From contig CDROCS010001208.1 of NCBI GenBank assembly GCA_977020255.1, positions 1 to 51,827 of the forward strand: DNA of 51,827 nucleotides. Reading direction: 5' to 3'. Made by a program: the position numbers and the translations under genes. Shown here piece after piece: positions 5,541 through 47,293 of this stretch; within the stretch, counting starts at the first letter, position 1, and each line of letters starts with the position of its first letter. Origin of the DNA: Obrimoposthia wandeli (lineage: Eukaryota). The notes under the pieces are model-generated. The model was not told the origin of the DNA, searched no databases, and saw nothing but the letters and a program-made list of their open reading frames with translations.

Positions 5541-6005
5541 ATCACTACTCATTACATCGACATAGTTTGTATTTCTCAAGGTTTTTATTTGTTTGAAATG
5601 TAATTAAGAAGTATTTTGATATCCCGTGATGGTACAAAGAAATTTAATGCACATTAACTGATTTGGATGAGCATGTTATCGAAATATAGTTTTTTGTTAT
5701 AACTCTTTTTAAATATCATTTGCTAATTTAACACTCAGAAAAAAACACACAAATCAAAAAATTTAAGCTGCATTATATGGTTTTTATATTTTTAAATGCG
5801 TTACAATTGGTATTATACAATGTTTTTGTTTCTGTTTTAATATGCATAACAGAGATGCAACCAGCTGGTACTGGCCGATAAATTACTCCTTTTTTTAAAT
5901 ATTCAATTTCTTTTAGTAGTATTTGAAAAAATAGTTTAGATTTTTATTTGAAAAAATCATTTTATTGAAGCATTAACAATATGTTATTTTACTTACGTTA
6001 TTTCC

Positions 6006-7345
6006 TCTTCGTATCCGGTATATAGCCCTTTTGGCACATTTTATCATGATCTCAAAGACCTCTCCAAAATGTGGTACATGTGGTGGGTTGAAGACCCAAC
6101 GTATCTCCTCCTTTACTAACTCCTTTTGAATCTGATAACCGTCCCGTATCAATTCGCTCACTTCATTCACCGCCCCTACAAAATTTGTGCCATTATCCGA
6201 GATTATCATTTGTGGTCTCCCTCTTCTTCCTAAAAATTATTTTAATGCCCTAATAAACCCATCGATATCCAAACCATAAGCCATCTCTAAATGAATGGCC
6301 TGCGTTTGTAAGTATGTAAAAGGCAAAGGTATATCTTAGTCCTCACTATTCCACGTCCTTCCTTTGTGATGAATGGTCCTGCAAAATCCACTCCGACGTT
6401 TGCAAAGGCCCTTAACGGTATTTCGAATCTGAATGCCGGCAAGGAAGCCATCTCTTTGACCATCCCTGCGACTTTACCTTTATTGCAGTCGAAGCATTCT
6501 CGCTCTATTTCTTTGATTACTCTTTGTACTTTAGGAATCCAATATTTATTTTGGCTCTCATTCGGTATATTCTGTACTCTGGCGTAATGCCGTAACCTCT
6601 CGTGTGTATCCTTTATGATTAATCTAGTCAGCCAACTCTTTTCTGATAACAAAATGAGATATTTTGTGTCATTATCTAAAAACTCCGCATTCATAATTTG
6701 GGTATTGGCTCTGATTATTTCTATTTCATCAACCCACGGTTTCAACTTTAGTAATGAGCTTGTTATCTCAATCTCTTTCTTCTTTATTAACCGTTGGTAT
6801 TCCTTGCAGAAATACTGAATTTGTTCATGCTTTATCAACAACTGCATCCCTTTTTCCACTTCATCCATTTTCAGCTCGCCTACAAGTCTGCGATTTTGAG
6901 GTAACTTTATATTTCGTGCAAATCTTAGTATCCCAGCTAAGACTCTCTTCAATCTCGTTAAGTCGGAATAAGTCTCTATTTTCAATCTTCCTGTATGAAC
7001 ATTGTTACTTCCTTGTACCGTTTCTTTTTCTTTTAATCTGACTGTATTTCTTCTAAGTCTAAATTATCAATCGCATCGTCACTTTGCCTGCGTATTCATT
7101 ACGCATGTATACTACTGCGCCATACCTTAAAGTTATCTGCGTTTACTTGGGTTACGATTTGAGCCATTAACGGCGAAGCATTTATTCCAAAGACTACTTT
7201 CTGAAATCCATACATATCCCTCAGGTTCTCTCTATTTTTCCCTAAAAACCTTAGCCATGGGCGGTCTTCCTTACATACCTTCATATGTAAATACATCTTT
7301 GAAATGTCACACACTAACGCTATTACATTCCTTCAAATTCCCTAA
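6006..7345 (-). mobile_element. BEL/Pao LTR-retrotransposon pol fragment (RT piece plus integrase), truncated at 6006
   Basis: CDISKMYLHM..DRPWLRFL..VFGINASP (BEL RT), then THERLRH..CFDC, VGVDFAGPF, SDNGTNFVGA, and PHFGEVFE. Confidence 0.88.
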
Positions 7346-7863
7346 CAGAGAGACCCAAGCACTACATAGGAACTAAAAAGAAATAAAATTTGTTTTTGGA
7401 AATTAAATTCAATAATTTTACTGGACATCCTCCTACGAAGAATACTACAGATAATTATTTTTATTTTTGTGTTAGGTTCATGTATTCATGTGTTAAAATA
7501 TTGAAGTTTTAATTTATGTAACTCTCAGAATATTTAGCCCCCTGGTCATTTTTATTTGTATGTATTAAAATTAAATTACAATTTTTGTATTTAATAGAGC
7601 CCAACATATACTAGAGATATGAAATTAATTGATAATAAAATATTTCATTTTATAGAATATAATTAGATTAAAAATATTGGATATGCTTCTTTGTACTTTC
7701 TTCATTTAAAAAATGTGCGTGTTTAATATCTTTATATTCAAAGTCATTTAAGTTTACTTTTACTTCGAACTACAGACTTGATTAATTTATTCACTTTTTA
7801 TCTTACTGATTCTTTTTCTTGATCTCTTATGCTTTACTTTTTCTTTGCATTTACGTTTTACTA

Positions 7864-8510
7864 TCAACTTCTTAAAATGCAATGCAAATTATTTTTTTCT
7901 TTTTGTTTATAAACAGTTACTCCCTTAGAATTAAATATATATGTTAAAACACGTAAATCATATAAGCAGGCTTGTGTAAATTCAATAAATATATATCCAT
8001 GTGCTTGTTTATCAGCATCATGGAATGAATGAACTAGAAAGTTTTTATTTTGGGTAAAAGCTTGTCTGGCCACGAAATCTACAACTGTTTGATCTCTCGA
8101 ATTTTTAAATAATACTAAGTAATGTATATTAAAATATCTTGATCTATGATGACATCCTTGATGAAAAAGATTTTGAGTGATAAATATATCTGTTACTTCA
8201 CGATGTCTTGCAATCTTTGTAAATAAATTATTAAAGTTCGATTCCTTGTTAGCTTCTTGATACTAATCATCAATAATTAATATATTTTATTTCTTCAATC
8301 TTTCGCACAAGTCGTATCAAATCCTTCAATAAATATTATTACCTTCAACTTGCAAACTTCTGTTTGGTCTATCCCACTTTCCCCTCTTCCACCATGATAC
8401 TAAAAAAATATTTTTAAAACTGGAATTGAAAATAGTTTCATTTTGTAACAATTTCCTGGGATCCACTTTCCACTGGGATCAACTATTTGAAATACGGTAT
8501 TTTTATTCAT
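7864..8510 (-). pseudogene. Second Polinton A32-like ATPase remnant
   Basis: MNKNTVFQIVDPSG (degenerate Walker A), LIIDD*YQEANKESNFNNLFTKIARHREVTDIFITQNLFHQG, YLVLFKNSRDQ, and AHGYIFIEFTQ. Confidence 0.82.
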
Positions 8511-8559
8511 CTTCTTTACATCTAGACTTTCATATAACAATTTATTTTCAATATTCGAT

Positions 8560-9040
8560 TCAACAGCGTATTGATAATCCAAATTTATCAATCTCAAAAT
8601 CATAAGTTTCCCACTGAAAAATATATTTACACATAGCGGTGTAAACGTCAAATATCTGAGTGCAGGAAACTTTTCAGGTTCAAACATGCATCGTTCTTTC
8701 ATTTTCTCTGTAATTTTATAAAGATTTATTGGTTTCCCAAGATTTTATGAAACTATGATTGATTGTTTGGCGCCGATTTGAATTCCAAAGAGTAAATTGA
8801 TCTAATTCAATGGTGTTTTGCATCCCATAACACGACAACTTCCTAAAAAATTCAATATGAAAATAAAATAAAAACTAACTTGAGGGAAGCAAACCAACTG
8901 TTTCGATACTGAGAAGACCCACTCTTCTCAACGAGACATTAAACAATGAGGAAGTATAATATACTGGTATATACGGATTGGCATAAAATGATTCTTCATA
9001 ACTTGTTAAGCTTATATTGCTCCAAATACTTTTTAGTATT
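8560..9040 (-). pseudogene. Second TBP-like remnant with a 37-nt intron (8843-8879)
   Basis: TVG(L/I)(L/F)PS, intron, SCRVMGCK, QSIIVS, NLGKPINLYK, and MFEPEKFPALRYLTFTPLCVNIFFSGKLMILRL. In-frame stops are present. Confidence 0.65.
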
Positions 9041-9205
9041 CAGAAACGAAAAACTAAATTCATTTCAATAAAATTCTTTCAACAATTGAGGATATTTATA
9101 AATTTATTTTCAACCAATACATTATTACAAAAAAATATTTAGATACAATTGAATTTTCTGAACAGATAATACATAATTTTAATACAAAATTTATCAAATC
9201 ATAGA

Positions 9206-10075
9206 ATGGATTCATGTATCATTTGTACTGGAGAGCTAGAGGATGATGAAGTTTGTGTGACTGAGTGCAGACACTATTTCCACACCGAGTGTCTCAAGGT
9301 ATGGATGCTAGTCAACTGTAGCTGTCCATTTGAACGAAATGAATTGCAGTACATCTTCATTTGTCAAAATGGCACTGAGAGCCGAGTTAGAGTGGCCACA
9401 CTTCTGCGGAAAGAATGGGAAGGATTGTGCAGAGAGATTGTGGAGGATACGAAAGCGAAGTGTTCGGTCTTGTATGAGGTGCTGACGACCCAGATGGTGC
9501 TGACCCATGAATTTCTAGAATTAGCTGCACAACAACGGGATCACGGACCGACACTGGAAAAGTGGTTCCATTGTCTTTCGTATTTGTGCAACACTATGCA
9601 AAGCTTCGAGGATGAGTTCACAGAAAACTTCATCAAGGTCCTGGAAACAGAACAGAACTCAGAAGGCTCTGACAGTCTGGAGTCGTCTTTGAATTGCATG
9701 AAAGATGTGCAAGAACAGCTGTTATCTCTTGTACACATCTGCAGCGTGTTAGGAGCCATAGGTGGCGATTTGGACCGGGTCCGATCTTTGTGTCAAGATT
9801 TAGAACTACTGGTCGACATCACACGGGAAGGTGTACTCGATCTCAAGATCTACTTCCTCACGACGAAGCTGCCAACTCAGCTGAGAGGTAACATGAAAAT
9901 AGTGCTTTTTGGAATAGCTTCAATGCAGCATTGTGCCATGTGCCGAGAAGAAATCGTTGATGTTGAGCGACTCCACGAGAGCCCCAAGACCTTAGGTATT
10001 TGTGGTCACAGGATCTGTCACAACTGTACCCTAGAATTACACGAGTTGGACATATTTTGTCCACATGAAAATTGA
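9206..10075 (+). CDS. Intronless 289-aa double-RING protein, putative E3 ubiquitin ligase (copy 1)
   Basis: N-terminal RING-H2-like set C4/C7/C21/H23/H26/C29/C40/E43, C-terminal RING-HC-like set C243/C246/C266/H268/C271/C274/C285/E288, and an acidic, probably helical middle. ATG-to-TGA intact, with AATAAA at 10113-10118. Confidence 0.85.
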   Translation: MDSCIICTGELEDDEVCVTECRHYFHTECLKVWMLVNCSCPFERNELQYIFICQNGTESRVRVATLLRKEWEGLCREIVEDTKAKCSVLYEVLTTQMVLTHEFLELAAQQRDHGPTLEKWFHCLSYLCNTMQSFEDEFTENFIKVLETEQNSEGSDSLESSLNCMKDVQEQLLSLVHICSVLGAIGGDLDRVRSLCQDLELLVDITREGVLDLKIYFLTTKLPTQLRGNMKIVLFGIASMQHCAMCREEIVDVERLHESPKTLGICGHRICHNCTLELHELDIFCPHEN

Positions 10076-10266
10076 ATTCTTTTGACAAGTACCAAAAAGG
10101 CTTTGTTTTTTTAATAAATTTAGTAATCTTTCTAAAATTACTTTTAATATTATTAAATTGAACAAAGGCAGTTATTTATTTTAATATAACATTATAAATA
10201 ACATGCTTTTAATTTTTTTATTAACAATATATTTAACAATATTTACACTTCAAACCTTTAACTAAC

Positions 10267-10393
10267 CATGTAGTACAGTTGGCGTCCACAAAATGTAAGA
10301 ATACAGGTTGATTTAATCCACTCAATGATGCTGGAGGGGATTTGAGTGTTTTATTTTACACTGCAATAAAAGCCGTTACAATATTTGTTCTAT
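10267..10393 (-). pseudogene. Orphan 127-nt exon resembling the GAIN/GPS region of an adhesion GPCR (other copies at 23254-23380 +, 29147-29273 -, 42147-42273 +)
   Basis: TTTCAG acceptor and GTTAGT donor. Encodes RTNIVTAFIAV*NKTLKSPPASLSGLNQPVFLHFVDANCTT(W), with one in-frame TAA. Confidence 0.45.
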
Positions 10394-10829
10394 CTGAAAT
10401 ACAAATGAATAAAACATTAGGAAAGTGAGAACTTACTAACTATTCATTTTTTATATTTAATACTTGATATATATTTAATGTTAAAAATAAACTATCTTAT
10501 TTAAACTTTTTAGATTTTTTTATTAAATTTTAAATCTAGTGAGGATACAAGTTAAGGGTTATGGAATACTGGCGGGTAATTTTAATACTTTTACCATTTT
10601 TTAATTAATTTTTATTATATTTGAATTTTTATTATTGAAATATTAATTAACTAAATTTTAATTAATTAAAATTTTATAATACATATCCGTTTAATAATAT
10701 AATTTTATTTAAATACACAAATTAATATATTTTATATTTTTACTAAAAATAATGTTAAATAATCAAACATTACCGATAAAACTTTTTCTAAAGTGGGAAA
10801 ATAATGAAAAATTATAAAAACCTAAATAT

Positions 10830-11015
10830 AAATAGAGAATAAGATTGGATCAAGTAACGAACACCGGGCAAACACTGCATTTTAAGTATTCAGGGTCTGA
10901 AACAGTATCATCAAATTTTAACAGATAGTTTCCGCTAAATAAAATCCCTTTTAAACCAATTAAGCTCTCCACAATTCAAATGCGGCAGATAGATCAAAAA
11001 GTATTATTAGTACTC
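10830..11015 (-). mobile_element. Non-LTR retrotransposon (CR1/L2-like) RT fragment (other copies at about 22630-22815, 29725-29895, 41525-41710)
   Basis: ILFDLSAAF and SLLDPILFSIY, matching LDLSAAFD and GSVLGPxLFxxY. Confidence 0.6.
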
Positions 11016-11283
11016 ATTTTTCATAGTTTAAATATTTTAATACATTTTATACTAAACAATGCCATTTTAGTTCAATGATAACTTCTATAAGCTGTTTGGC
11101 AAATACATAAACACATTCTTTTTTAAGTAAATGATGAATGGTGTCAGAACTTATTTTTCAAGAACTTTCAATAGACATTAAAAGTTTAAATTGTATTTAC
11201 AAATTGATAGATTGGCTTTGTGCGCACACCAAAACATAATACCGAAAATGATTGCATAATCCCGCAAGGATGACCTGTCACAC

Positions 11284-11599
11284 CACAAGGGTATGGCTAA
11301 GATAGGTTATGAAACTTTGAAGGTATGATTGTGACCTTATATAGTTGACCAACACACTTAGAGGGTTATGGACGTCTATAGATGAAAACCCAGGTTCAGT
11401 TATAACTTGAAGATTTAGAGATAAAGCTGAGGTCAACTATGGTTGGCCATCACATCTAAAGGATTGTGGTCGTCCGTAAATGAAGTGGTCGGACTAAAGG
11501 CCAAATCAAGTTTCAAATATGAAGGTTTGAGTATATGGTTGGGATAATCTTCATCCTTCCACCTACTAAAAGAGACAATAGAAATAACAAATTGCACAC
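11284..11599. repeat. Degenerate, internally repetitive dispersed element (mirror at about 40942-41257), related to 16900-17030
   Basis: Recurrent TATGGTTGGCCA, ATAGATGAAA and TTATAACTTGA motifs shared with the reverse complement of 16900-17030. Confidence 0.5.
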
Positions 11600-12074
11600 T
11601 ATTAGCATTACAAAGACGATTAACTTTATATCAAACGTCTCGATGGTTTCACTTATTTCTGTCAGTGAATGAGATGTCAATTCCAGTCAACTATAATAGT
11701 AAATAAAAACATGTCTGTTATCAGTAAATACCAAATATTTATTGAAGGTGACTACTGAATTTTTGTCGTTTTTTTCTTAGTTTAAAACTTTAACGAAATA
11801 TAGAAATCAATACCATAAATAACTAAAATATAAAGAATTTGTTACATACATCATTTTTCTGTTATTTTAATAACTTAGCAGTGCATATAACGTCTTTGAA
11901 ATGACTTTTTCCACATATCATCTTGGTTTTTTTGGAACAGTGTATACAATGGTGCAGCCTTTTGACAGGTAATGCATAAAAAAGATTAAAATTCTAGGTA
12001 GTGTACTAAAAAAATTTAAATTGCAAAAGTTATAACTTAATCTTAAAAAATACCAAAAACCGTAATATCTAATC

Positions 12075-12620
12075 TAGCTTCATCTCAGACCCTCTTCAAG
12101 TTCTGGCAGGTAGATGCTGTTGGCAGAGGGATAGCAGTGTCCCAAGCCCTGGCCAAATTTTACCTGGTGCTTAATGGAGCCGGTTCTGTCTCCTGCAGAC
12201 ATCGTTGACTGTGAGGCGGACTAATCTCGATTGGAGAGACTGGTATCCTCTCGAACAAAATTGGCCCGTAGTCCACTGGAAATGGGAGAATCTCCTGATG
12301 ACCTGATGGCCTTCCTCTTCCACGAAGCTTTCTTCAGTTTCTCCTTCTCATGCTGAAGCTGACGTGAGACCGCATCCTGCTGCCCTCGCGAATCTGGAAG
12401 CATTGTCGGTTCCGGATTCTCCAGTTCTGCAGGCAATTCGTCCAATCCAGCTTCATCCCAGTCCATGATCAATCACTGCTTCTCTAGAATTGAACATTGC
12501 GGTGATACACTTTTGGAGCGCTTCGTTTTCTGCACATCTGCTCGCTTTACCCGTTTCCGCGAGAAAGGAGAAATTTATCGCCAAGTCTCCTCAGTTACCT
12601 TTGAAGGACCATGCAATAAA
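12075..12620 (-). pseudogene. GC-rich decayed ORF of unknown family (mirror at about 39920-40465 +)
   Basis: Sharp compositional island with partial frames, for example MDWDEAGLDELPAELENPEP..HEKEKLKKASWKRK. Several stops and frameshifts. Confidence 0.3.
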
Positions 12621-13499
12621 GAATTGTTAAATATTATAAAATATTTAGATAAAAAATATTATTAAATATATTAAAATTTTCCTCAATAATAGGATAAGGA
12701 AGTTTATTTTAATGTTCCATTAATGTCTCCGTAGAATGTAGAATATTGGTTTTCGACTTTCTAATGCGTTTGGTCTCTCTTCTATGAGTGTTGCAGGTTA
12801 CTGCAAAAGAACATCAATAACATTTGACATGTATAGATTTTTTTCACTCCACACACATGCACGGTATTAAATGACAGTGGTAGCCCTCCGGCGATAGGAG
12901 GATGGCGTGAATTAGACCGGACATATCCACCTACTCATGAGCAGACATATAATATCTATGAAATTATTGTGCTTTCAATTGAAGGTCACATAAGCATAGA
13001 TTATCATAAGTAGACAAGTGTAGACAATTTATCGTATAAGACACTGAAAGAGCTTTAAATCATAAGCCACTAACAACTTTATTGATTTAAATTCAACTTT
13101 AAAAAATACTCCAATAATTATAATCATAATTATTTAGGCATATCACCAGGATTTCAAACTCATAATCCATGGAATGGATTATTATAATTCTATAACAAAA
13201 ATAATAATAAACTTATCATTATTACCACTACACATTATCATCCCACCATCACCCACCATCACCACTATCATCATCACAATTACCACATATTTTGGTCTCA
13301 TTAAAAAATCAATACAACCAATCCTTACTTTCATTATTTAGCATTGGCCAAGTTAGGTGTGCATAACCATTAAATTTACCAAATCAATAAAACCAAGGCT
13401 TACTTTTATTATTCAACATTGGCCAAGTTTATATTTGTGAGTACCTTATTTCCGTGTCATTTAATTTTCGTGAGACATAAATAATAAGTTGATTATCTT

Positions 13500-13900
13500 G
13501 TAATAGAACAGCACCGAGCCCATAGTCACTGGCATCTGTTCTAAGTTTCACTTTAACTCATTATTAAATATTTTCAAAGGGTTTATAATTGATAATTCAT
13601 GTTTCAATTTTATAAACTGAGATTCATGGCTGTCTTTCCATACATAAACATCTTTCTTCATAATATCCCATAAATCTCCAACTAATTCCGAATAGCCTTT
13701 AGATAACTTCTGACCCACATATCCTGCTAAGTCTAAAACACTTCTAAATTCATTGTGATTCTTTGGTGTTGGATATGCTTTCAATTTATCACATCTATCT
13801 TTCGTAGGTCTCAATCCGTCGGCACGTAACATATCTCCTAAACATTTAACTGTTCTTTTACATTATTCACCAAACACCACATATTTCCTACTCTCTTTAT
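13500..13900 (-). mobile_element. Ty3/Gypsy RT-RNase H junction fragment (mirror at about 38640-39040 +)
   Basis: LKAYPTPKNHNEFRSVLDLAGY..VWKDSHESQFIKLKHEL, then RTDASDYGLGAVLLQ. Confidence 0.8.
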
Positions 13901-15089
13901 TTAATAAAATCTGGTGATAATCTTTTTTGGCATCCAGAACAAAAATATTTTTCACCACTATCATCATTACATTTACCACAGAAATCTAGGAACTACAATT
14001 TTAATTACTAATCTTGTAGTGTATAATAATGTATATTTTCTAGGCCTTCAAAAGGGTAGAGAAAGTCTTTCTTGGCTATTTATTAAAAAAAATTGAAGAA
14101 TGACAAATTTAAGAAAACATTTGACATATTGGGAAAAATTTATAATCGAAAAAAAAACAATATCAGAAAACCCTTAAAATATTTCCTACAAAAATTGAAT
14201 GTTAAAAATTCTAGTTTAGTGCAATTATCAATGTTGTGTGTTTGTTCGAATAAGCAGAATGGAATAATTGTAGTGTAGCAAAATTTTGTAATAATTATTT
14301 CGTGAGTTTTCGTAAATAACAATATAATTTACTTAAAAATGTATTTTCAGCTTTATAATTTTCTTCACTTATTTCTTTAAGTTTTTTGGTTTAAGTCTCT
14401 GGAAAAATTAGTTAATACAATTCCGAGTATCCCGTTGACAAGAACTGCATTATCTTCTAAACTTTTAATCATATTGGTATACATATTCTGAAAGACCTCT
14501 TGTGATAATAAAAAATCTTTATAATTTAATGCATCTCACAACAAATATGTTTAACATGTCCTTAAATTTCACTCGACCAACTAACTTGTGATCACCTCCC
14601 AGATCATATTGCTATACTCCCCATACTGAAGCCACTGATTTATTTCACTAAAACCTTATATCATGTACTCTTAATGTTAAATAAATATTTTTTAAAAATA
14701 GTATATAAATAACAAATAATTTTTTGGTCAGCTTAAAATGCTTATTATCAGTAAAACACTATTTTCTCCATATATCTTCTGGTTAATCTGTGTATTAATC
14801 CTTTTCAACAATGATTCTTTTGTCAATATAAAATAGTACGTGAATTAATTTGTTAGATATTGTCTACTTTGTAATAAAAGACAATTAAATAATTGATAAA
14901 AACGACAATTATATTCTCAATGTTTAGTTTAATACTATTTATAAACTTTATTGTATTTCTTTATTATAGTTTTAATTACTAGATAATTGAACAGTTTTCA
15001 AACCTAATACTTTCTTTGTAGTTTGTTATCTAGCGCAATTAGCGTAATATCCATCTCATTGTCAAGAACTTCAACATTTGAATTTAGAA

Positions 15090-15345
15090 AAATGTCACAA
15101 TAAAATACAACAATATTATGGGTATAAATATCGTTAAGACATGTATTATATTTGTTATATCTCCGAATTCAATAAATTCAAAACTCTATGTTTCCAAAAT
15201 TATATCAACTCCAATCGTTTTGTTTCCCAATGAAATTGTTATAACTCAAAATGCGATAAATTCAACAACAAAAATCAAAATGCAATTTTTTATTTCCAAT
15301 ACGGTTCTGTAAATTGTCAAAGCAATGATAATAATTATTATAGTT
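15090..15345 (-). pseudogene. Possible decayed multi-pass membrane (GPCR-like) exon fragment (mirror at about 37195-37450)
   Basis: Hydrophobic frame IIIIALTIYRTVLEIKNCILIFVVEFIAF*..IIHVLTIFIPIILLYF. Family not secure. Confidence 0.25.
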
Positions 15346-15759
15346 GTTTGTGTCACGAATCCAAAAATATGTTGCTATTTATAGCAACTGATCACCTGCA
15401 TACAGTCAGCAGTAAATGCTCAGTTAACAGAGTGCAAAAGGCAGAGATAAGGAGATATCGATTTGTGCTGTAACTGTTTTTGGAGACACACAAACATGCA
15501 GAAGACTGCCGCTGTTGAAAGAAGAGAAAACAGGACTGCATCCGATGAAGGCGGTCTGGACAGCGGAGGTTGCCGAGCGATGAAGATGTGGAAGAAGGTC
15601 CGGAGTTCTGCTTCCCGCGCCAAGGCAGATCGCGGTAGTGGAGGTGGTTCTGTGAAACCTGAACGACTTTGTGCAGGTAAGTGTTTTTCTTCTAATCTGT
15701 TTTTCTTTTTTATCTCTGACTTCGCTGGCATTTTGCCCACCGCGAAGCTAGAGATAAAT

Positions 15760-15813
15760 CTGCCGTCCCCCCGACGAGCCGGCAGGGCGAAACCGGTTAA
15801 GCCGGTCAGGGAC
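15760..15813 (+). ncRNA. Type I hammerhead ribozyme-like motif with a U4C core variant
   Basis: Stem I GTCCC(C)/(A)GGGAC; core CCGACGA; stem II GCC-GGCAG-GGC; GAAA; stem III ACCGG-TTAAG-CCGGT; GTC cleavage triplet at 15805-15807. The 5' tail CTGCC is complementary to loop II GGCAG. Confidence 0.68.
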
Positions 15814-16269
15814 TGAAGGAAAACAAAAATGCCAAAGTGCATCTATATAACCCCTCCAATCGCCCCTCAATTAAGGGAACAATTAATTAACTTTTCCACT
15901 AATTAACCCATCATAAATAACTCAATTTTTTCATTCCCAACATATTTGTCCATATTGTTCAACTACAGAACTGGATAATTATAAGAATTTTATAGAAAAC
16001 ATTATTTAATAAGCATTTATAAGTAGAAAAAGATTTTTAAATTCAATTCCGACTATAGCTTTAAATTATGATTTGACTCCAATCGCAGTTCCGGCTTCGA
16101 CAATGAAAGTTGCTCATCTAGATCTTATTGATTTAAAAATTCCGAATAATCTTCTATTTAAAGTAGCAGAAATAATGAATAATATGGGCAATGCAAAAAT
16201 TCAATACATTATACGGATGAAATTAAAAAAGGAGAACGGTCTCATAAGGCGGTCATATTTATTTATGAA

Positions 16270-16790
16270 AAATGCCTGAAATCGAAGAAACTATGGATAA
16301 GAGAGTTGAAGAATATTCCGAAAATGAAGTGGATGGAAATTAATAAAAGTTTTAGACTATGTATTTGTCATAACGAAATATAGTGAAAGATCTGCATTAT
16401 CTGGACATTCAAACATTCCAACACCAAAATCGTTATAAAAAAGTAAAGCTATTGTAAGTTTTCAAAACAATGACAATCTGTGTTTTATTTATGTAATTCT
16501 GGCTGTTTTGAAACATGGTGAGATTACTAATCATACAACTCTTGTATGAAAGTATTCACCAGTTTTGAAAGATTTGATGTTTGACGAAACAGATATGCCA
16601 ATGAAGATTTCAAATATATTAAAGTTTGAGACAAAGAATCCGAATATAAGGATTAATGTACTTTTATACAATGATGCCGTCATCGAAGAAAAATATGTTT
16701 ATGTTATAAAAATTCCTACATATACATTGCATATAAATCAAAGAAAAAGGTAGGAAATATTGTTAATTTGATACTGTTGGAGAATATATC
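16270..16790 (+). pseudogene. Polinton protein-primed DNA polymerase B N-terminal-region fragment (mirror at about 35750-36270 -)
   Basis: SGWKLIKVLD, KSKAIVSFQNNDNLCFIYVILAVL, and MPMKISNILKFETKNPNIRINVLLY..IVNLILL, matching the GSGW..KKAIINVKNxDNKCF..FPVxLxDIxKFEKxN..INV pattern. Confidence 0.7.
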
Positions 16791-17619
16791 AGAGAATATT
16801 GGAGAAAAATATCCCAGTAAAATTTAAAGTTCAGATTTAAATAAATTTTAAAAATTAAGATGACATCAAATATAACTTCAAGTCGTAACTGATCCCTACC
16901 CCTTCATATATAGACGACCTCAACCCCTTGGATATGTTGGCCAACCATACCTTCAAACCGTCAAGTTATAATTGAGCCAGACTCTTTCATCTATGGATGA
17001 AAAAAACCCCATATCTGATTATCCTGGCTTGTTTTGATAATAAACTAATTAAAATGGTTTGTTTTAAAAACATCGCTAAATACAGTTTAAAGCACAAGTT
17101 TAGTAACTGTTGATATAATTACCAACTAACAACCAATGTTACTCAAATTAAACTAATATTAAAAGTGATATACACCTGTGTTCTACTTCATTATTAGCAT
17201 GGGGTCACTGCGACCACTTCATGATAATGTATCATTTTATGTAATTAATTTTTCAAGTACAAGTACGATTGCATACATATATATATATATATATATATAA
17301 AAATATTCTAAAATTATTATTTTCTTTAAAATTATAATAAAAAAAATTATAAAGTGTTAAATTAATTACAATAATTAAATATACAAAAATTTAATACAAA
17401 TAACTATTACTGGCTCACATTTGAAAACCTTCTTCTGTTGTGGGATTTTTAAAGTTTATATATATGATTCGAACATGCTGAATTCCAAATTAATATTTAT
17501 TTACCTCTATCAGATCATGTTTACTCTATGGATCGTTCTTCAGTCTAATTTTATCCCAAAATATATTTTCATTTTTAACTCGAACTATGTTAAAATATTC
17601 TTCAAAAACATCTAAAACT

Positions 17620-18250
17620 TATATGCCTATCGTGATTTCTGTGAAAATTATGGTGCCTCCGCTTCCATTGTCCGCTGACTCGGCCTTCGTTGGTGTACGA
17701 ATTACCACAAGCGGATGTGCTTTAAATAGTATTATCTTGTTTATTAATTGTAAAATTGCATCCAGATCTTGGTCTTCTCCCCATCTTATCACTCTAAACA
17801 TTTAAATTTCATCCAATAAACCTCTTTAATTTCTTTCCTTCCATCGTATCTTTCTTCTAGCAATCTTAAAGCTTTATCGTAACTTGCATCCGTGAACCTC
17901 CATCAGCTGCAGCATTATTTTCTTGCCTTGGTGCATCGGTCTGATCGATGACAGTATCAAATATTGCCCGCCTACTCTCATAATATTTATAATCACCAAA
18001 GAAGTATGGAATACTAATCTTTTTCCGACCCTTTAAAAAGTTTCTGTCTGACTTCTTTTTATCTATTGACTTCTTCTTTCACATAGCTTGACTCTTCTTT
18101 GGTTCTAGTTTCAAATTCTCTTTCTATCTTTGCAATGTCACTTTTTATTTCCATTATCTCGAGTTGTTCTTTTACTCCAGCGCCTGCTCCAATTCCTTAT
18201 TATTTTGTTCACCAAATCTTCGTACGATATCTCTATACTCTTTTCTTTAA
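17620..18250 (-). mobile_element. BEL/Pao gag (DUF1759-like) remnant (mirror at about 34282-34912 +)
   Basis: KISIPYFFGDYKYYESRRAIFDTVIDQTDAP, SYDKALRLLEERYDG, and EI*MFRVIRWGEDQDL, preceded by a lysine/glutamate-rich coiled-coil-like stretch. Confidence 0.65.
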
Positions 18251-19149
18251 TCTGTATCTTCTCTAGTGTTACATGAATCTGACCACTCTTCTCCTGCTAG
18301 TATTATATCCAACTTAGTTATATTCTTCTCATGTTCCATGTCATCTTTCAATTTTGGTGTTACCCTGACGTTTGCACCGCTCTTAATAACGTCGTCTGGT
18401 CTTATGCATTTCCCTTCCGATTCCAACCAGTACTCCCAGAGTATCTTACCTTTCCACGTATATCCTTCCAACTACACCTCTCCATGTACTCAATCACACG
18501 GATATTTTTGCTCTATATTAAAAAACACGACTTGAGGTTAGGCTTAATGAAGGTATTTACTTTTACCTTTTTATCTTTATTCCCTAAAATATTGGTTGCA
18601 GAAAATGTACTATTTAAATTAGTCAATTGGGGAAAATGAGGAAAACGAGCTTCCGCAAGCTTTTCTACTAACACCCTTTCTTCCAAAGAGCAATGACTAA
18701 AAGACACTCTTGTCTCTCTAGTTCCTAAAAATATTCCGGGATTTGTATAAATAGTATCTATATTATACCGGTGACATATTCTAGTAGTGCTTATAACATC
18801 ATAATTTACCTTATCACTGAATCTGTCTAAAATTTGACCTATTCTAGTAGCGCTTATAATCGCGTCATTTACTTTATCGCCTAATGCTACCGTAAATCTT
18901 CAAAATGTTTCATTATTTACAATAACTGTTACAATTGACTTAATTCTACCCGATCAAATGAGAGAGAATTAATTAAAATATTTGTTAGTAAAAATTACTT
19001 AATTATTTTTTAAAAATATATATATATATGCAAAAATTATTTACATTGTCCTCTTTTGCTGCCTCTCCTTCAGTTTGATCTAAATCTTCGATTCTAGGTT
19101 TCTCCTTCTCCTCCGCTCTCTTCTCTTTCTCTACATACACTTTAATGGG

Positions 19150-21290
19150 ATACCATAGAGGCTCACTATCATCTATTTTCACAGCACTAGACTCTCACAA
19201 ATATTATTCCTCGTCATTATCTGCAACCAAATATGCCGAGTAAAATCCAACCCGCATTTTCCTGTTTTAGTAGACACTTTTGTCTTAACCATCATATATC
19301 TTAATGTGTGTATAACTCTTTCTTCCAGACCGTTACTTTGATTAAGAGCTGTATTGAACATACCAAATTTTCGTCGCTAATTCTGAAAATAATTTCCAGT
19401 AAATATTCGTCCTATATCTATTAAAATGCTTTTAGGTTTCCCAAATGTATATATTCAATTTGTCTATGAGTTCTTTAGTAATTGTTATTTCATCTTATTT
19501 TGTAGTTATTAATAGTAATACCAGTTTACTAAATCGATCGATTACTATCGACATATATTTCTTTTTAGATCATCCTTCCTTCATGTGGGCTGTATCGACA
19601 AGCATTTGATCTAAAAATTCAACTTATTTATTTTATTTTTTGAATTATTCTTTCCAAAATAAAATTATATTTCATATATTTATAAACCTTATGCATTCCT
19701 AGATGACAAAGATATTGATAAATGTTATTAATAATTTCATAAGCGTTTTCGTAGGTATGACTATTAAATCTGTAAAATTATGTTCAAAATAAAAGATATC
19801 ATCGCAGAGTTTAAGTGTTTCTTTTATCTGCTAAATCCAATTTATTTTGCATTCTTCTGATAAATCTATACTTTATAATTAAATGCACACTTTCATTTCT
19901 TTCACATGAATATATTCTTGTTGTATTTTTCTTATCTTACTGAAGAAGTTGTCTTCATTTAGTGAGTGAATATATTGTATTTTAGATATCTTCTCTTGTG
20001 CATATATATGTTTAGTTTTGCACTGAGTGCAGTCGGTTTCATTCAATCTTAACAAGCCATCGGCAATACCATGGTCAATACCTTTACGATGTTCTAACTT
20101 AAAATTAAATTTTGATAAACTTTCAGTAATATTTGAAATTGAGGACTGATTGAAATTTTTGTTGTTCTTAAAAACACTTACGATTTATGATATGTTCTTT
20201 CCAAAAATTCTGTTCCATATAAATATTGTTTGAAATACATATTAAATTAGTATTCTTCTAAAAGTTCCTTTCTGGTAACACAATATTCTTTCTCATGAAA
20301 AGTCAAATGTTTTGAAGCATATGCAATCACTTTTTTGTTTCTCATTTCATTCAGTTGGCACAATATTGCCCCAAATCGCACCAAAACTGGCATCTGTTAA
20401 AATTATAAATGTTTTATTTCACCTGGAAAAGTCTAGTATGATTGCCTTGTGACATAGTGGGACTGCAATATTGGCATAAACTTTTATAAATCGTCGATAA
20501 TAGTTTGTCATTCCTAAGTATGATCATAGTTTCCCTTACAGTCGGGTTCTTTGAAATTTATAATTTCGTTGACTTTAGACTGATTTATATGTATTTAGCT
20601 TTGTGTTATCGTATGACCTATGGCTTTTAACAGTTTCTGATCATTGTAGCGTTTATTAGGGTTTATATTGAGACCTGCAGCTGCAATTCTTTTGAATGCT
20701 TCCCTTAATAATTTATAATGTTCTTCTTGGTTGTTACTATAGACAAGGATATCATCCAGATATACAATTTTTCTTCTGAACAGCAATCCATTAGAATTTC
20801 TATGTATGATTCTGGAATGTGGCAGGTCCTGTAGCCAACCCAAATGGCCACCAACTGAAATAAAATTGTCTCAGTTTTGTACTGAGAGTCGATTTTGTCT
20901 GAGATTCTTTCTCTAGATCTACCTGGTAATAAGCTTGTCCAATATCTAGTGTCGTAAATATTTTTTCATCACCTATACAATCGAACAAGAGTTGTGCATC
21001 TTGTATTGAAAATGTAAACTTCTTGGTTACATCATATAATTGGCTGTAGTCAACACACATTCGATTTGTATTGTCTGGTTTCTTTACAATGACCAATGAA
21101 GGTTCGAATGACTTTCATCCTTTCATCAAATTGGATTTCTAATTGCATTGCTTGTCGTCTAGGATTTTGAAAAATTGGATCAGCAATAGTCTCAATCTTA
21201 TGAGAGACAATTTTGGTATATCCTCAATCAAATTTAGAACATATACATATTTTTCCAAACTCCTCAATATAATGTCCTAGAATTTAGTAT
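19150..21290 (-). mobile_element. Ty3/Gypsy pol pseudogene (RT, RNase H, integrase)
   Basis: VIVKKPDNTNRMCVDY, FTTLDIGQAYYQV, PFGLATGPATFQ, YLDDILVYS, LTDASF, VIAYASKHL, HRKGIDHGIADGL, VIDRFSK, and NQSNGLEER. Confidence 0.9.
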
Positions 21291-23586
21291 CTATCGCGTT
21301 TTAAAGAATTTCATATTGTATCTGATTTTTCTTTCGAGGAAAACTTTTTTATCATGCAAGACGAGTCTAAATTGCATAATATTACAGTTTTAATCTAAAA
21401 TATATCACAAACCTTAGAAAAGAGAATAAAATAATCTTAAAAACAATTTAATGTTACGATATATATTAGTATATGTCAGTTAAATATTAATAAAAACTTT
21501 TACTTTGAAATGTTATTTATATTTTTCTTTAAAAATGTAATTTTCAGATTTTCTGCAAAACGTCTTTGGCACTACTTTACCCAATGTTTAATTCTTTTTT
21601 TGGTATATATTTCATACTCTAGAATAATATGATGCCAAGTTATTCTGAGTTCCCCTACATCTTACAAAATTAATTTTGAAAAGTTTTTAAAACATGTCAG
21701 AAATGAATCAATAATAACAACAAGATAAATATTTAGTTAAACGTTTTTCTATCGTTTCTTCTGTCTCTGGGCAATATTTAGAATTCACGCGGAAAAGCCT
21801 TGGGGAAGTATAATTTTTTACCATTATCTATAATCATATTTGCATACCTTGAAACACATCGCAATCTACTAATATTTAATAAAGCCATGAGATGGCTGGG
21901 TAGCTACCATATGAAACTTTGTTACTGCACTGTCTAAAAATTAAAAATGTGTGAAAGTAAGTATACAAATAAATATATTCAATTTACTGAAAGACAGTGA
22001 CCGTTATATATTCAAAATGTCAAATTTCATTGTTGATTATTTAACTTAGTGTTTTATGGTTTGTTAGAAAAAATTTTGAATTGGTTTTTATTACAAATAA
22101 AATGATCTTTGATATTTTTAAGATTAAGTTATAACTTTTGCAATTTATTTTTTTAGTACACTACCTAGAATTTTAATGTTCTCTATGCAATACCCGTCAA
22201 AATTCAGTAGTCACCTTCAATAAATATTTGCTCATTACTGATAACAGGCATTTTTTTATTTACTATTATAGTTGACTGGAATTGACATTTCATTCACTGA
22301 CAGAAATCAGTGAAACCATCGAAAAGTTTGATCTAAAGTTAATCGTCTTTGTAATGCTAATAGTGTGACAGGCCATCCTTGTGGTATTATGCAATCATTT
22401 TCGGTATTATGTTTTGTGTGCGCACAAAGCCAATTTATCAATTTGTAAATACAATTTAAACTTTTAATGTTTATTGAAAGTTCTTGAAAAATAAGTTTTG
22501 AAACAATTAATCAGTTACTTAAAAAAAGAATGTGTTTATGTATTTGCCAAACAGCTTATAGAAGTTATCATTGAACTAAAATGGCATTGTTTAGTATAAA
22601 ATGTATTAAAATATTTAAACTATGAAAAATGCGTACTAATAATACTTTTTGATCTATCTGCCGCATTTGAATTGTGGAGAGCTTAATTGGTTTAAAAGGG
22701 ATTTTATTTAGCGGAAACTATCTGTTAAAATTTGATGATACTGTTTCAGACCCTGAATACTTAAAATGCAGTGTTTTCTCGGTGTTCGTTACTTGATCCA
22801 ATCTTATTCTCTATTTATATTTAGGTTTTTATAATTTTTCATTATTTTCCCACTTTAGAAAAAGTTTTATCGGTAATGTTTGATTATTTAACATTATTTT
22901 TTAGTAAAAATATATAATATATTAATTTGTGTATTTAAATAAAATTATATTATTAAACGGATATGTATTATAAAATTTTAATTAATTAAAATTTAGTTAA
23001 TTAATATTTCAATAATAAAAATTCAAATATAATAAAAATTAATTAAAAAATGGTAAAAGTATTAAAATTACCCGCCAGCATTCCATAACCCTTAACTTGT
23101 ATCCTCACTAGATTTAAAATTTAATAAAAAAATCTAAAAAGTTTAAATAAGATAGTTTATTTTTAACATTATTAATATATCAAGTATTAAATATAAAAAA
23201 TGAATAGTTAGTAAGTTCTCACTTTCAGAATGTTTTATTCATTTGTATTTCAGATAGAACAAATATTGTAACGGCTTTTATTGCAGTGTAAAATAAAACA
23301 CTCAAATCCCCTCCAGCATCATTGAGTGGATTAAATCAACCTGTATTCTTACATTTTGTGGACGCCAACTGTACTACATGGTTAGTTAAAGGTTTGAAGT
23401 GTAAATATTGTTAAATATATTGTTAATAAAAAAATTAAAAGCATGTTATTTATAATGTTATATTAAAATAAATAACTGCCTTTGTTCAATTTAATAATAT
23501 TAAAAGTAATTTTATACAAAGTAATTTTAGAAAGATTACTAAATTTATTAAAAAAACAAAGCCTTTTTGGTACTTGTCAAAAGAAT

Positions 23587-24456
23587 TCAATTTTCATGTG
23601 GACAAAATATGTCCAACTCGTGTAATTCTAGGGTGCAGTTGTGACAGATCCTGTGGCCACAAATACCTAAGGTCTTGGGGCTCTCGTGGAGTCGCTCAAC
23701 ATCAACGATTTCTTCTCGGCACATGGCACAATGCTGCATTGAAGCTCTTCCAAAAAGCACTATTTTCATGTTACCTCTCAGCTGAGTTGGCAGCTTCGTC
23801 GTGAGGAAGTAGATCTTGAGATCGACTACACCTTCCCGTGTGATGTCGACCAGTAGTTCTAAATCTTGACACAAAGATCGGACCCGGTCCAAATCGCCAC
23901 CTATGGCCCCTAACACGCTGCAGATGTGTACAAGAGATAACAGCTGTTCTTGCACATCTTTCATGCAATTCAAAGACGACTCCAGACTGTCAGAGCCTTC
24001 TGAGTTCTGTTCTGTTTCCAGGACCTTGATGAAGTTTTCTGTGAACTCATCCTCGAAGCTTTGCATAGTGTTGCACAAATACGAAAGACAATGGAACCAC
24101 TTTTCCAGTGTCGGTCCGTGATCCCGTTGTTGTGCAGCTAATTCTAGAAATTCATGGGTCAGCACCATCTGGGTCGTCAGCACCTCATACAAGACCGAAC
24201 ACTTCGCTTTTGTATCCTCCACAATCTCTCTGCACAATCCTTCCCATTCTTTCCGCAGAAGTGTGGCCACTCTAACTCGGCTCTCAGTGCCATTTTGACA
24301 AATGAAGATGTACTGCAATTCATTTCGTTCAAATGGACAGCTACAGTTGACTAGCATCCATACCTTGAGACACTCGATGTGGAAATAGTGTCTGCACTCA
24401 GTCACACAAACTTCACCATCCTCTAGCTCTCCAGTACAAATGATACATGAATCCAT
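23587..24456 (-). CDS. Double-RING protein (copy 2)
   Basis: Intact 289 aa. Differs from copy 1 by D14G, T27I, L211V and I237R. Confidence 0.85.
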   Translation of the reverse strand: MDSCIICTGELEDGEVCVTECRHYFHIECLKVWMLVNCSCPFERNELQYIFICQNGTESRVRVATLLRKEWEGLCREIVEDTKAKCSVLYEVLTTQMVLTHEFLELAAQQRDHGPTLEKWFHCLSYLCNTMQSFEDEFTENFIKVLETEQNSEGSDSLESSLNCMKDVQEQLLSLVHICSVLGAIGGDLDRVRSLCQDLELLVDITREGVVDLKIYFLTTKLPTQLRGNMKIVLFGRASMQHCAMCREEIVDVERLHESPKTLGICGHRICHNCTLELHELDIFCPHEN

Positions 24457-24622
24457 TCTATGATTTGATAAATTTTGTATTAAAATTATGTATTATCTGT
24501 TCGGAAAATTCAATTGTATCTAAATATTTTTTTGTAATAATGTATTGGTTGAAAATAAATCTATAAATATCCTCAATTGTCGAAGGAATTTTATTGAAAT
24601 GAATTTATTTTTTCGTTTCTGA

Positions 24623-25090
24623 ATGCTAAAAAGTATTTGGAGAAATATAAGCTTAACAAGTTATGAAGAATCATTTTATGCCAATCCGTATATACCAGTT
24701 TATTATACTTCCTCATTGTTTAATGTCTCGTTGAGAAGAGTGGGTCTTCTCAGTATCAAAACAGTTGGTATATTTCCCTCAAGTTAGTTTTTATTATGGG
24801 ATGCAAAACACCATTTAATGAGATCAATTTACTCTTTGGAATTCAAATCTGCACCAAACAATCAATCATAGTTTCATAAAATCTTGGGAAACCAATAAAT
24901 CTTTATAAAATTACAGAGAAAATGATAGAACGATGCATGTTTGAACCTGAAAAGTTTCCTGCACTCAGATATTTGACGTTTTCACCGATATGTGTAAATA
25001 TATTTTCCAGTGGGAAACTTATGATTTTGAGATTGATAAATTTGGATTATCAATAGGCTGTTGAATCGAATATTGAAAATAAATGATTAT
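24623..25090 (+). pseudogene. TBP-like remnant, inner copy with the intron acceptor deleted
   Basis: GTTAGTTTTTATTATGGGATGC: the acceptor and the SCRV codons are missing. A truncated mirror copy lies at 27598-27919 (-). Confidence 0.6.
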
Positions 25091-27515: not shown

Positions 27516-28085
27516 TCAAATTTTAGACAGATTCAGTGATAAGGTAACTATATTGATAACTATATTCTAAAAAAATAATTTTTCATTGATCGATATATCA
27601 AACATGCATCGTTCTATCATTTTCTCTGTAATTTTATAAAGATTTATTGGTTTCCCAAGATTTTATGAAACTATGATTGATTGTTTGGTGCAGATTTGAA
27701 TTCCAAAGAGTAAATTGATCTCATTAAATGGTGTTTTGCATCCCAAAATAAAAACTAACTTGAGGGAAACATACCAACTGTTTTGATACTGAGAAGACCC
27801 ACTCTTCTCAACGAGACATTAAACAATGAGGAAGTATAATAAACTGGTATATACGGATTGGCATAAAATGATTCTTCATAACTTGTTAAGCTTATATTTC
27901 TCCAAATACTTTTTAGCATTCAGAAACGAAAAAATAAATTCATTTCAATAAAATTCCTTCGACAATTGAGGATATTTATAGATTTATTTTCAACCAATAC
28001 ATTATTACAAAAAAATATTTAGATACAATTGAATTTTCCGAACAGATAATACATAATTTTAATACAAAATTTATCAAATCATAGA

Positions 28086-36300: not shown

Positions 36301-36726
36301 CGTTCTCCTTTTTTAATTTCATCCGTATAAAGTATTGAATTTTTGCATTGCCCATATTATTCATTATTTCTGCTACTTTAAATAGAAGATTATTCGGAAT
36401 TTTTAAATCAATAAGATCTAGATGAGCAACTTTCATTGTCGAAGCCGGAACTGCGATTGGAGTCAAATCATAATTTAAAGCTATAGTCGGAATTGAATTT
36501 AAAAATCTTTTTTCTACTTATAAATGCTATTAAATAATGTTTTCTATAAAATTCTTATAATTATCCAGTTCTGTAGTTGAACAATATGGACAAATATGTT
36601 GGGAATGAAAAAAATTGAGTTATTTATGATGGGTTAATTAGTGGAAAAGTTAATTAATTGTTCCCTTAATTGAGGGGCGATTGGAGGGGTTATATATATG
36701 CACTTTGGCATTTTTGTTTTCCTTCA

Positions 36727-36780
36727 GTCCCTGACCGGCTTAACCGGTTTCGCCCTGCCGGCTCGTCGGGGGGACGGCAG
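36727..36780 (-). ncRNA. Mirror copy of the hammerhead-like motif
   Basis: Identical reverse complement of 15760-15813. Confidence 0.68.
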
Positions 36781-39700
36781 ATTTATCTCTAGCTTCGCGG
36801 TGGGCAAAATGCCAGCGAAGTCAGAGATAAAAAAGAAAAACAGATTAGAAGAAAAACACTTACCTGCACAAAGTCGTTCAGGTTTCACAGAACCACCTCC
36901 ACTACCGCGATCTGCCTTGGCGCGGGAAGCAGAACTCCGGACCTTCTTCCACATCTTCATCGCTCGGCAACCTCCGCTGTCCAGACCGCCTTCATCGGAT
37001 GCAGTCCTGTTTTCTCTTCTTTCAACAGCGGCAGTCTTCTGCATGTTTGTGTGTCTCCAAAAACAGTTACAGCACAAATCGATATCTCCTTATCTCTGCC
37101 TTTTGCACTCTGTTAACTGAGCATTTACTGCTGACTGTATGCAGGTGATCAGTTGCTATAAATAGCAACATATTTTTGGATTCGTGACACAAACAACTAT
37201 AATAATTATTATCATTGCTTTGACAATTTACAGAACCGTATTGGAAATAAAAAATTGCATTTTGATTTTTGTTGTTGAATTTATCGCATTTTGAGTTATA
37301 ACAATTTCATTGGGAAACAAAACGATTGGAGTTGATATAATTTTGGAAACATAGAGTTTTGAATTTATTGAATTCGGAGATATAACAAATATAATACATG
37401 TCTTAACGATATTTATACCCATAATATTGTTGTATTTTATTGTGACATTTTTCTAAATTCAAATGTTGAAGTTCTTGACAATGAGATGGATATTACGCTA
37501 ATTGCGCTAGATAACAAACTACAAAGAAAGTATTAGGTTTGAAAACTGTTCAATTATCTAGTAATTAAAACTATAATAAAGAAATACAATAAAGTTTATA
37601 AATAGTATTAAACTAAACATTGAGAATATAATTGTCGTTTTTATCAATTATTTAATTGTCTTTTATTACAAAGTAGACAATATCTAACAAATTAATTCAC
37701 GTACTATTTTATATTGACAAAAGAATCATTGTTGAAAAGGATTAATACACAGATTAACCAGAAGATATATGGAGAAAATAGTGTTTTACTGATAATAAGC
37801 ATTTTAAGCTGACCAAAAAATTATTTGTTATTTATATACTATTTTTAAAAAATATTTATTTAACATTAAGAGTACATGATATAAGGTTTTAGTGAAATAA
37901 ATCAGTGGCTTCAGTATGGGGAGTATAGCAATATGATCTGGGAGGTGATCACAAGTTAGTTGGTCGAGTGAAATTTAAGGACATGTTAAACATATTTGTT
38001 GTGAGATGCATTAAATTATAAAGATTTTTTATTATCACAAGAGGTCTTTCAGAATATGTATACCAATATGATTAAAAGTTTAGAAGATAATGCAGTTCTT
38101 GTCAACGGGATACTCGGAATTGTATTAACTAATTTTTCCAGAGACTTAAACCAAAAAACTTAAAGAAATAAGTGAAGAAAATTATAAAGCTGAAAATACA
38201 TTTTTAAGTAAATTATATTGTTATTTACGAAAACTCACGAAATAATTATTACAAAATTTTGCTACACTACAATTATTCCATTCTGCTTATTCGAACAAAC
38301 ACACAACATTGATAATTGCACTAAACTAGAATTTTTAACATTCAATTTTTGTAGGAAATATTTTAAGGGTTTTCTGATATTGTTTTTTTTTCGATTATAA
38401 ATTTTTCCCAATATGTCAAATGTTTTCTTAAATTTGTCATTCTTCAATTTTTTTTAATAAATAGCCAAGAAAGACTTTCTCTACCCTTTTGAAGGCCTAG
38501 AAAATATACATTATTATACACTACAAGATTAGTAATTAAAATTGTAGTTCCTAGATTTCTGTGGTAAATGTAATGATGATAGTGGTGAAAAATATTTTTG
38601 TTCTGGATGCCAAAAAAGATTATCACCAGATTTTATTAAATAAAGAGAGTAGGAAATATGTGGTGTTTGGTGAATAATGTAAAAGAACAGTTAAATGTTT
38701 AGGAGATATGTTACGTGCCGACGGATTGAGACCTACGAAAGATAGATGTGATAAATTGAAAGCATATCCAACACCAAAGAATCACAATGAATTTAGAACT
38801 GTTTTAGACTTAGCAGGATATGTGGGTCAGAAGTTATCTAAAGGCTATTCGGAATTAGTTGGAGATTTATGGGATATTATGAAGAAAAATGTTTATGTAT
38901 GGAAAGACAGCCATGAATCTCAGTTTATAAAATTGAAACATGAATTATCAATTATAAACCCTTTGAAAATATTTAATAATGAGTTAAAGTGAAACTTAGA
39001 ACAGATGCCAGTGACTATGGGCTCGGTGCTGTTCTATTACAAGATAATCAACTTATTATTTATGTCTCACGAAAATTAAATGACACGGAAATAAGGTACT
39101 CACAAATATAAACTTGGCCAATGTTGAATAATAAAAGTAAGCCTTGGTTTTATTGATTTGGTAAATTTAATGGTTATGCACACCTAACTTGGCCAATGCT
39201 AAATAATGAAAGTAAGGATTGGTTGTATTGATTTTTTAATGAGACCAAAATATGTGGTAATTGTGATGATGATAGTGGTGATGGTGGGTGATGGTGGGAT
39301 GATAATGTGTAGTGGTAATAATGATAAGTTTATTATTATTTTTGTTATAGAATTATAATAATCCATTCCATGGATTATGAGTTTGAAATCCTGGGTGACA
39401 TGCCTAAATAATTATGATTATAATTATTGGAGTATTTTTTAAAGTTGAATTTAAATCAATAAAGTTGTTAGTGGCTTATGATTTAAAGCTCTTTCAGTGT
39501 CTTATACGATAAATTGTCTACACTTGTCTACTTATGATAATCTATGCTTATGTGACCTTCAATTGAAAGCACAATAATTTCATAGATATTATATGTCTGC
39601 TCATGAGTAGGTGGATATGTCCGGTCTAATTCACGCCATCCTCCTACCGCCGGAGGGCTACCACTGTCATTTAATACCGTGCATGTGTGTGGAGTGAAAA

Positions 39701-43333: not shown

Positions 43334-43496
43334 TCTATGATTTGATAAATTTTGTATTAAAATTATGTATTATCTGTTCAGAAAATTCAATTGTATCTAA
43401 ATATTTTTTGTAATAATGTATTGGTTGAAAATAAATTTATAAATATCCTCAATTGTTGAAAGAATTTTATTGAAATGAATTTAGTTTTTCGTTTCT

Positions 43497-43977: not shown

Positions 43978-44026
43978 ATCGAATATTGAAAATAAATTGT
44001 TATATGAAAGTCTAGATGTAAAGAAG

Positions 44027-47280: not shown

Positions 47281-47293
47281 GGGGAGAATGTTG
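47281..47293 (+). other. Candidate polypurine tract and 3' LTR start (GGGGAGAA-TGTTG) of the BEL/Pao element
   Basis: Purine run followed by TGTT about 400 bp downstream of the integrase end. The LTR end was not identified. Confidence 0.4.

Follow-up and report, generated by a model that had tools for sequence, protein, structure and literature searches.

The window analysed here, a stretch of 51,827 nucleotides from Obrimoposthia wandeli, contains at 15760–15813 a sequence that can be drawn as a type I hammerhead ribozyme and that departs from the hammerhead core. This raises the question of whether it is a decayed ribozyme or a natural attenuated variant, and of what a hammerhead is doing at such a site. 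Three stems are arranged around the core, stem I being the open one (15765–15770 with 15808–15813, C15770 and A15808 remaining unpaired). Stem II has 3 bp in this copy and closes the loop GGCAG (15781–15785), to which the 5′ tail CTGCC (15760–15764) is complementary; stem III and GUC are both present, with a UH triplet preceding the cut. On the + strand the core reads CCGACGA (15771–15777) and GAAA (15789–15792), and thus differs from the invariant CUGANGA/GAAA at position 4 (15772). The sequence-only reading had called the motif a type I hammerhead in which the 5′ tail contacts loop II, and both the anatomy and the complementarity bear this out. Its account of a variant core was right about position 4 and the stem I mismatch but overlooked a third lesion, the loss of one base from stem II. 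The coordinates of the motif and its surroundings are collected in Table 1.

Table 1. Features of the window around the hammerhead motif and its second copy
Feature	Position	Strand	Remarks
Decayed type I hammerhead ribozyme	15760..15813	+	predicted cut position after 15807
Identical second copy of the decayed hammerhead	36727..36780	-	all 54 bases the same
5′ tail GCC, conserved partner of loop II GGC	15762..15764	+	putative 3-bp pseudoknot
UGA after stem I, including U1.7	15814..15816	+	predicted Hoogsteen partner of the last loop II A
Long hairpin directly 5′ of the ribozyme	15709..15758	.	families A, C and D; not seen in B
Solo LTR of a Ty3/gypsy element, 790 bp, TG...CA	15153..15942	- (element sense)	U3 starts at 15942
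Target-site duplication TATT, left copy	15149..15152	+	
Target-site duplication TATT, right copy	15943..15946	+	
Putative TATA-like box of the LTR promoter	15376..15383	-	in a near-palindrome, ~420 bases from the cut position
AATAAA, candidate poly(A) signal	15289..15294	-	element sense strand, from sequence
Second copy of the same solo LTR	36597..37387	+	other arm of the 19-kb inverted duplication

A relaxed hammerhead descriptor run over the window returned two matches only, the motif itself and 36780–36727 on the − strand, where its 54 bases recur in the other arm of the duplication, as had been claimed. Thirty locally shuffled control windows gave a mean of 0.03 matches with equal stems and 0.13 loose matches. 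A chance fold was rejected: the shuffled windows were close to zero, and the tail, core and loop pattern had 6,277 matches in the genome compared to none in the reversed control. The covariance-model check proposed earlier gave a divided answer. In the Rfam search the window copy alone had no hammerhead match even at E ≤ 10, with noise only around the motif; the sibling copy L012, which folds as a hammerhead, reached 31 bits on RF00163 (E 3.1e-6), below the gathering score of 34. The minimum-energy fold of the window copy is not the hammerhead (z −0.20 and +0.13 in two calculations), and the mean probability of the hammerhead pairs was 0.49, compared to 0.96 for L012. For two family B copies, too, the minimum-energy state was not the hammerhead when the pseudoknot was left out.

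A DNA search of the organism's own genome (1.35 Gb) gave 1,925 candidates, of which 40 were scored and 30 fetched. Four of these 30 loci are the same insertion as the window copy. In most of the other 26, which are non-identical, the core is canonical, stem II has 4 bp and closes a 4-nt loop, and position 1.1 is paired. Compared with these siblings the window copy carries lesions at 15772 (core position 4), at 15778–15780 (stem II one base short) and at 15808 (position 1.1). A T at 15770 had been predicted for the siblings; it was found in one of the 26 non-identical loci (L009), and it was the 3′ strand, at 15808, that changed to give the stem I mismatch. The 5-nt loop II and the fifth pseudoknot pair are private to the window copy because the stem II deletion creates them; the ‘perfect 5-bp pseudoknot’ described earlier is thus partly a deletion product, whereas 3 bp of it are conserved in the family.

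The window copy is therefore a decayed relic rather than an attenuated variant, given three lesions relative to its siblings and a form confined to one duplicated block, and we predict it to be inactive or very slow. That it could be a natural slow variant maintained by selection is highly improbable. Rare active core variants do occur in nature (PMC3088659), and of the 10 positions private to the window LTR in a comparison with eight close relatives, three (15772, 15778 and 15808) fall in the ribozyme, that is, within 57 of 575 bases, which is slightly above expectation, the excess not being significant (P 0.07). However, this form of the ribozyme occurs exactly four times in the genome, on C1208 and C1661, with the same flanks and in a single duplicated block, and a solo LTR is unable to propagate it. 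The canonical base is present at core position 4 in 97 of the first 100 listed among 346 subfamily matches. A slow variant would also have to accommodate three independent lesions, and indels near the pseudoknot are described in the available text of PMC3088659 as cutting rates by orders of magnitude.

While the sequence-only reading was correct about the motif itself, it had overlooked the context: the ribozyme lies on the antisense strand of an LTR that belongs to a coding gypsy element. LTR homology extends from 15153 (TGTT) to 15942 (AACA), and counted from the U3 start the ribozyme occupies LTR positions 130–183. A 4-bp target duplication flanks the window copy and all seven other solo copies whose left end was located. 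The empty site is represented by a contig of run X4, which joins both flanks (15147 to 15942). No tandem array was found at the site. An LTR on the + strand with self-priming was considered and rejected once the PBS, the PPT and pol had been placed. Sense-strand boxes similar to the TATA-like sequence of the window LTR lie 380–570 bases from the ribozyme in nine of eleven 5′ LTRs, as motif matches only. The + strand ORF at 15451–15816, with its donor-like site, was rejected as an antisense gene, having no Pfam match and no conservation between families. Depth was high over the hairpin and ribozyme in contigs of four sequencing runs from one sample, which show neither strand nor ends; we take this signal as a measure of neither copy number nor expression.

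Some LTR copies run on one side into a common internal sequence. This region encodes gag-like, Monjiviricetes_fusion, protease, RVT_1, RNase H, rve and RNase_T domains, on the strand opposite the ribozyme and in the order PR–RT–RNase H–IN; the gag match is weak (E 0.007, below the cut-off). Following the 5′ LTR is a PBS, likewise opposite the ribozyme, that matches a genomic tRNA-Trp over 10–12 bases at its 3′ end, and a short, imperfect purine tract precedes the 3′ LTR. From the gypsy pol order, the PBS and the env-like region, the element is therefore a Ty3/gypsy element with env between gag and pol. The LTRs have TG...CA ends, a short target duplication and paired copies 12–14 kb apart, with one ribozyme in each. 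Five such pairs are 97.2–99.6% identical, so the lineage moved recently. A coding internal region was found in families A, B, C and D, and the pol proteins of families B and C, again opposite the ribozyme, are 87–96% identical to those of A.

Several further features of the element were seen. In families A and D the PPT is directly preceded by an exonuclease ORF (RNase_T; L033:1093-1764 (-), L032:7637-8698, L164, L184), whose best solved match is ISG20 (E 7e-8). Between gag and protease is a Monjiviricetes-type fusion glycoprotein (L033:7248-9901 (-), L037, L069, L070, L134, L135). Every internal stretch seen has frame breaks. In one case (L089 and L090) the LTRs are 12.9 kb apart with the same non-PPT flank after both, one element end seemingly having been rearranged. 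The tRNA-Trp genes whose 3′ end matches the element PBS form a tandem array with ~207-bp spacing (L132, G000:C5734:143000-151100).

The ribozyme is abundant across the genome, and its orientation is uniform. A looser core pattern gave 8,207 matches compared to eight in the control. Among 85 copies examined for orientation, 34 were assignable, 50 were unassigned and one was not parsed; in all 34 assignable copies the ribozyme was antisense, 17 being followed by a PPT-like tract and 17 preceded by a PBS, with none in sense. No hammerhead core with stem II was found on the pol strand in nine internal stretches. Four LTR families (A–D) keep the ribozyme in U3, antisense, with compensated stems and two tertiary designs, and between families the LTRs can be aligned over only 54–209 bases around the ribozyme. 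The second design is that of family D (45 pattern matches, 30 fetched), which has different stems, a GNRA-type loop II in place of the pseudoknot, and the ribozyme ~220 bases from the same LTR end. Two of the 30 family D copies continue into sequence that holds, on the opposite strand, a PPT-like tract and the exonuclease ORF; the UH triplet and U1.7 are each present in 29 of the 30. In family D (L136, L144-L147, L160-L189) the 9-nt loop III could base-pair with a motif close to the end of the LTR, and L136 looks intermediate between D and A–C. LTRs of different families often lie ≤1–3 kb apart (L008, L023, L025, L026, L038, L040), possibly by insertion preference or nesting, and a four-ribozyme cluster recurs 24 kb apart on C46 (G000:C46:2000-37000).

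We aligned 30 copies in genome order, 24 of them distinct (alignment A1). The search pattern that found them had fixed the letters of the core and pseudoknot, so the invariance of these positions is not evidence; kinship among the copies also inflates the covariation counts. Within these bounds 93.9% of the pair cells are paired, and among the 24 distinct copies five of 15 stem pairs have changed on both sides, so that the covariation among homologues named earlier as a check was found for stems I–III. On the ribozyme strand there are 14 G-U compared to three A-C combinations, five between-family comparisons revealed no changed pair that was broken, and the UH triplet precedes the cut in 29 of 30 siblings.

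The tertiary contact has support that is independent of the pattern: 6,277 of the 8,207 looser core matches have the 3-bp tail–loop complement, and all 30 copies have U1.7, a position outside the search pattern, 28 of them with the full UGA. A Hoogsteen pair between U1.7 and the last loop A has been reported for natural hammerheads, which the invariant U1.7 fits (PMC11875169). A fourth tail–loop pair, between the base before GCC and the loop A, occurs in six of the 24 distinct copies, in families A–C. A test for covariation of the pseudoknot was negative, with 278 loop-only compared to 10 double changes, approximately as expected for independent decay. The pseudoknot is therefore argued from conservation and from analogy with the hammerheads of PMC3088659, not from covariation, and on these grounds we infer that families A–C conserve a 3-bp pseudoknot plus U1.7.

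The closest comparison is with the plant LTR retrozymes, which likewise have a hammerhead in each LTR, a 4-bp target duplication and a Ty3/gypsy-type PBS and PPT. As described in the available parts of the same reports, those elements are non-coding, 1–1.5 kb long and of type III, carry the ribozyme on the PBS-bearing strand and yield circles (PMC4918200, PMC7761336, PMC5680766). The present elements, in contrast, are coding, have LTRs 12–14 kb apart and a type I ribozyme opposite the PBS, PPT and pol; the non-coding internal region of 300–1000 bp that marks a plant-type retrozyme was not found in them. Metazoan non-LTR retrozymes and Penelope-like elements (PLEs) share with them the type I fold, an animal-type genome and a high copy number, but are described, in the sections available, as tandem 170–400-nt units or, for PLEs, with pseudo-LTRs (PMC7229834, PMC4209133, bioRxiv 10.64898/2026.07.22.740005). 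Here the hammerheads are in dispersed true LTRs with a PBS, a PPT, a target duplication and gypsy pol, and neither tandem 170–400-nt units nor an adjacent PLE RT–GIY-YIG ORF was found. A mononegavirus-type fusion glycoprotein-like env between gag and pol is also present in the planarian Burro gypsy-like elements, likened here by layout. Burro elements are >30 kb with a 4,873-aa polyprotein, whereas the present lineage is ~13–14 kb with a 3′ ISG20-like exonuclease, and the available text on Burro mentions no hammerhead (PMC6431247).

Pseudoknotted type I hammerheads are already known, and those of types I–III pair loop II with the stem I side, as is proposed here for families A–C; the accessible text describes no LTR setting for them (PMC3088659). 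The present motif is distinct from the helix-II-replacing PK hammerhead of PMC11300833, as far as the available text defines it. In literature that took in few subscription papers and no supplements, and for the parts of the papers available, we found no hammerhead in a coding gypsy LTR or on its antisense strand; Dataset S1 of PMC3088659, outside that scope, could contain such sequences. The copy in the window is thus ordinary, and what appears to be new is the family behind it, a hammerhead in a coding gypsy LTR, antisense, with a testable role. On a separate note, four phage contigs (L101-L104) carry the same GCC/GGCA module, with U(G/A)A in loop I, circularly permuted and apparently with type III wiring; two of these contigs do not differ over the stretch compared. 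Among 27 metagenome loci with a related RT (32–55% identity) there was no core-plus-stem II match; most of these loci are short and probably without LTRs, and are therefore uninformative on spread.

What is fixed in the U3 of this lineage, on the antisense strand, is a conserved, cleavage-shaped hammerhead. Eukaryotic hammerheads are mainly explained as releasing or circularising the RNA of their own element. A ribozyme opposite the genome RNA cannot do this, yet four LTR families keep it, which implies another job. Because the ribozyme is antisense, the genomic RNA would be spared, its 3′ U3 holding only the non-cleaving complement, and the substrate would therefore have to be antisense RNA. 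We think it probable, though by no means assured, that the intact U3 hammerheads of this coding, env-bearing Ty3/gypsy lineage self-cleave antisense transcripts and so limit long antisense or double-stranded RNA. Intact copies would have to cleave, and antisense RNA would have to be made, either divergently from the LTR promoter or by host read-in from beyond the 3′ LTR. Divergent transcription is common at such promoters. At the 3′ LTR, antisense RNA would meet the ribozyme ~135 bases before the coding region, and a cut ~400–570 bases from the TATA-like box would eliminate antisense RNA that is protected by its cap and complementary to the genomic RNA. Cutting ahead of the coding region could shield the element from RNA silencing, a purpose that is one of several fitting an antisense cutter. 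More tentatively, and with less confidence than in the cutting of antisense transcripts, we suggest that the lineage may use RNA alone to counter small-RNA silencing, a defence that would have outlasted a change of tertiary architecture and may involve the ISG20-like exonuclease. If so, thousands of solo LTRs would also be strand-specific transcript cutters across the host genome.

The same anatomy would also suit a ribozyme whose purpose is its product, a defined antisense RNA of ~400–550 bases from the LTR promoter, with a hairpin and a cyclic-phosphate end, that either supplies host small-RNA pathways or acts as a regulator of the element or of its copy number. Families A, C and D have a stable hairpin immediately 5′ of the ribozyme, and family A has a splice-donor-like CAG|GTAAG upstream, both of which would be in keeping with this. 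We nevertheless regard it as unlikely: the sequence from promoter to ribozyme is unalignable between families, a conserved antisense ORF was looked for and none was seen, and family B lacks the hairpin, which in family A has the more stable fold on the other strand (−33.8 compared to −29.3 kcal/mol).

Two further explanations are less probable still. The ribozyme could be a functionless hitchhiker, captured once from another repeat into a modular U3 that picks up foreign pieces, with the antisense orientation merely making it harmless. One capture does account for the common orientation, and related sequences can exceed a shuffle control without selection, but all stem changes between families stay paired, with a G-U bias on the ribozyme strand, while the remaining U3 has diverged past alignment; family D, moreover, rebuilt its stems and its tertiary contact yet kept the core, the UH triplet (29/30) and U1.7. 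This makes an idle passenger very improbable. A retrozyme-like route, in which cuts in both LTRs would free a unit-length antisense RNA that closes into a circle and joins copying, is very improbable even though plant LTR retrozymes, with one ribozyme per LTR, do so (PMC4918200, PMC7761336) and the present LTR pairs, 12–14 kb apart, have a ribozyme in each. The present elements are coding and some tenfold larger, and a circle from the ribozyme strand would be unable to bind the tRNA primer because that strand holds the complement of the PBS and PPT. Cleavage of antisense transcripts is the reading we retain, and for it the thousands of insertions, with the ribozyme intact or decayed, are a natural experiment on antisense read-through and small RNAs that needs no engineering; the window copy is just one of the decayed controls.

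The surroundings of the window copy deserve brief description. The LTR lies in an inverted duplication of 19 kb with 99.5% identity (window 6002–24944 and 27598–46535), with nested partial copies, and the same block occurs twice more on C1661 (98.8–99.3% over the 3 kb around the LTR). The block duplication is either a recent amplification or an assembly artefact. It contains a 301-aa RING-finger ORF (window 9170–10075, four copies) among RT and integrase relics, together with a TBP-like fragment (8400–8744) and a further fragment (7864–8262). Outside the inverted block, a two-copy tandem repeat of 298 bp, 98–99% identical, occupies 47292–47888.
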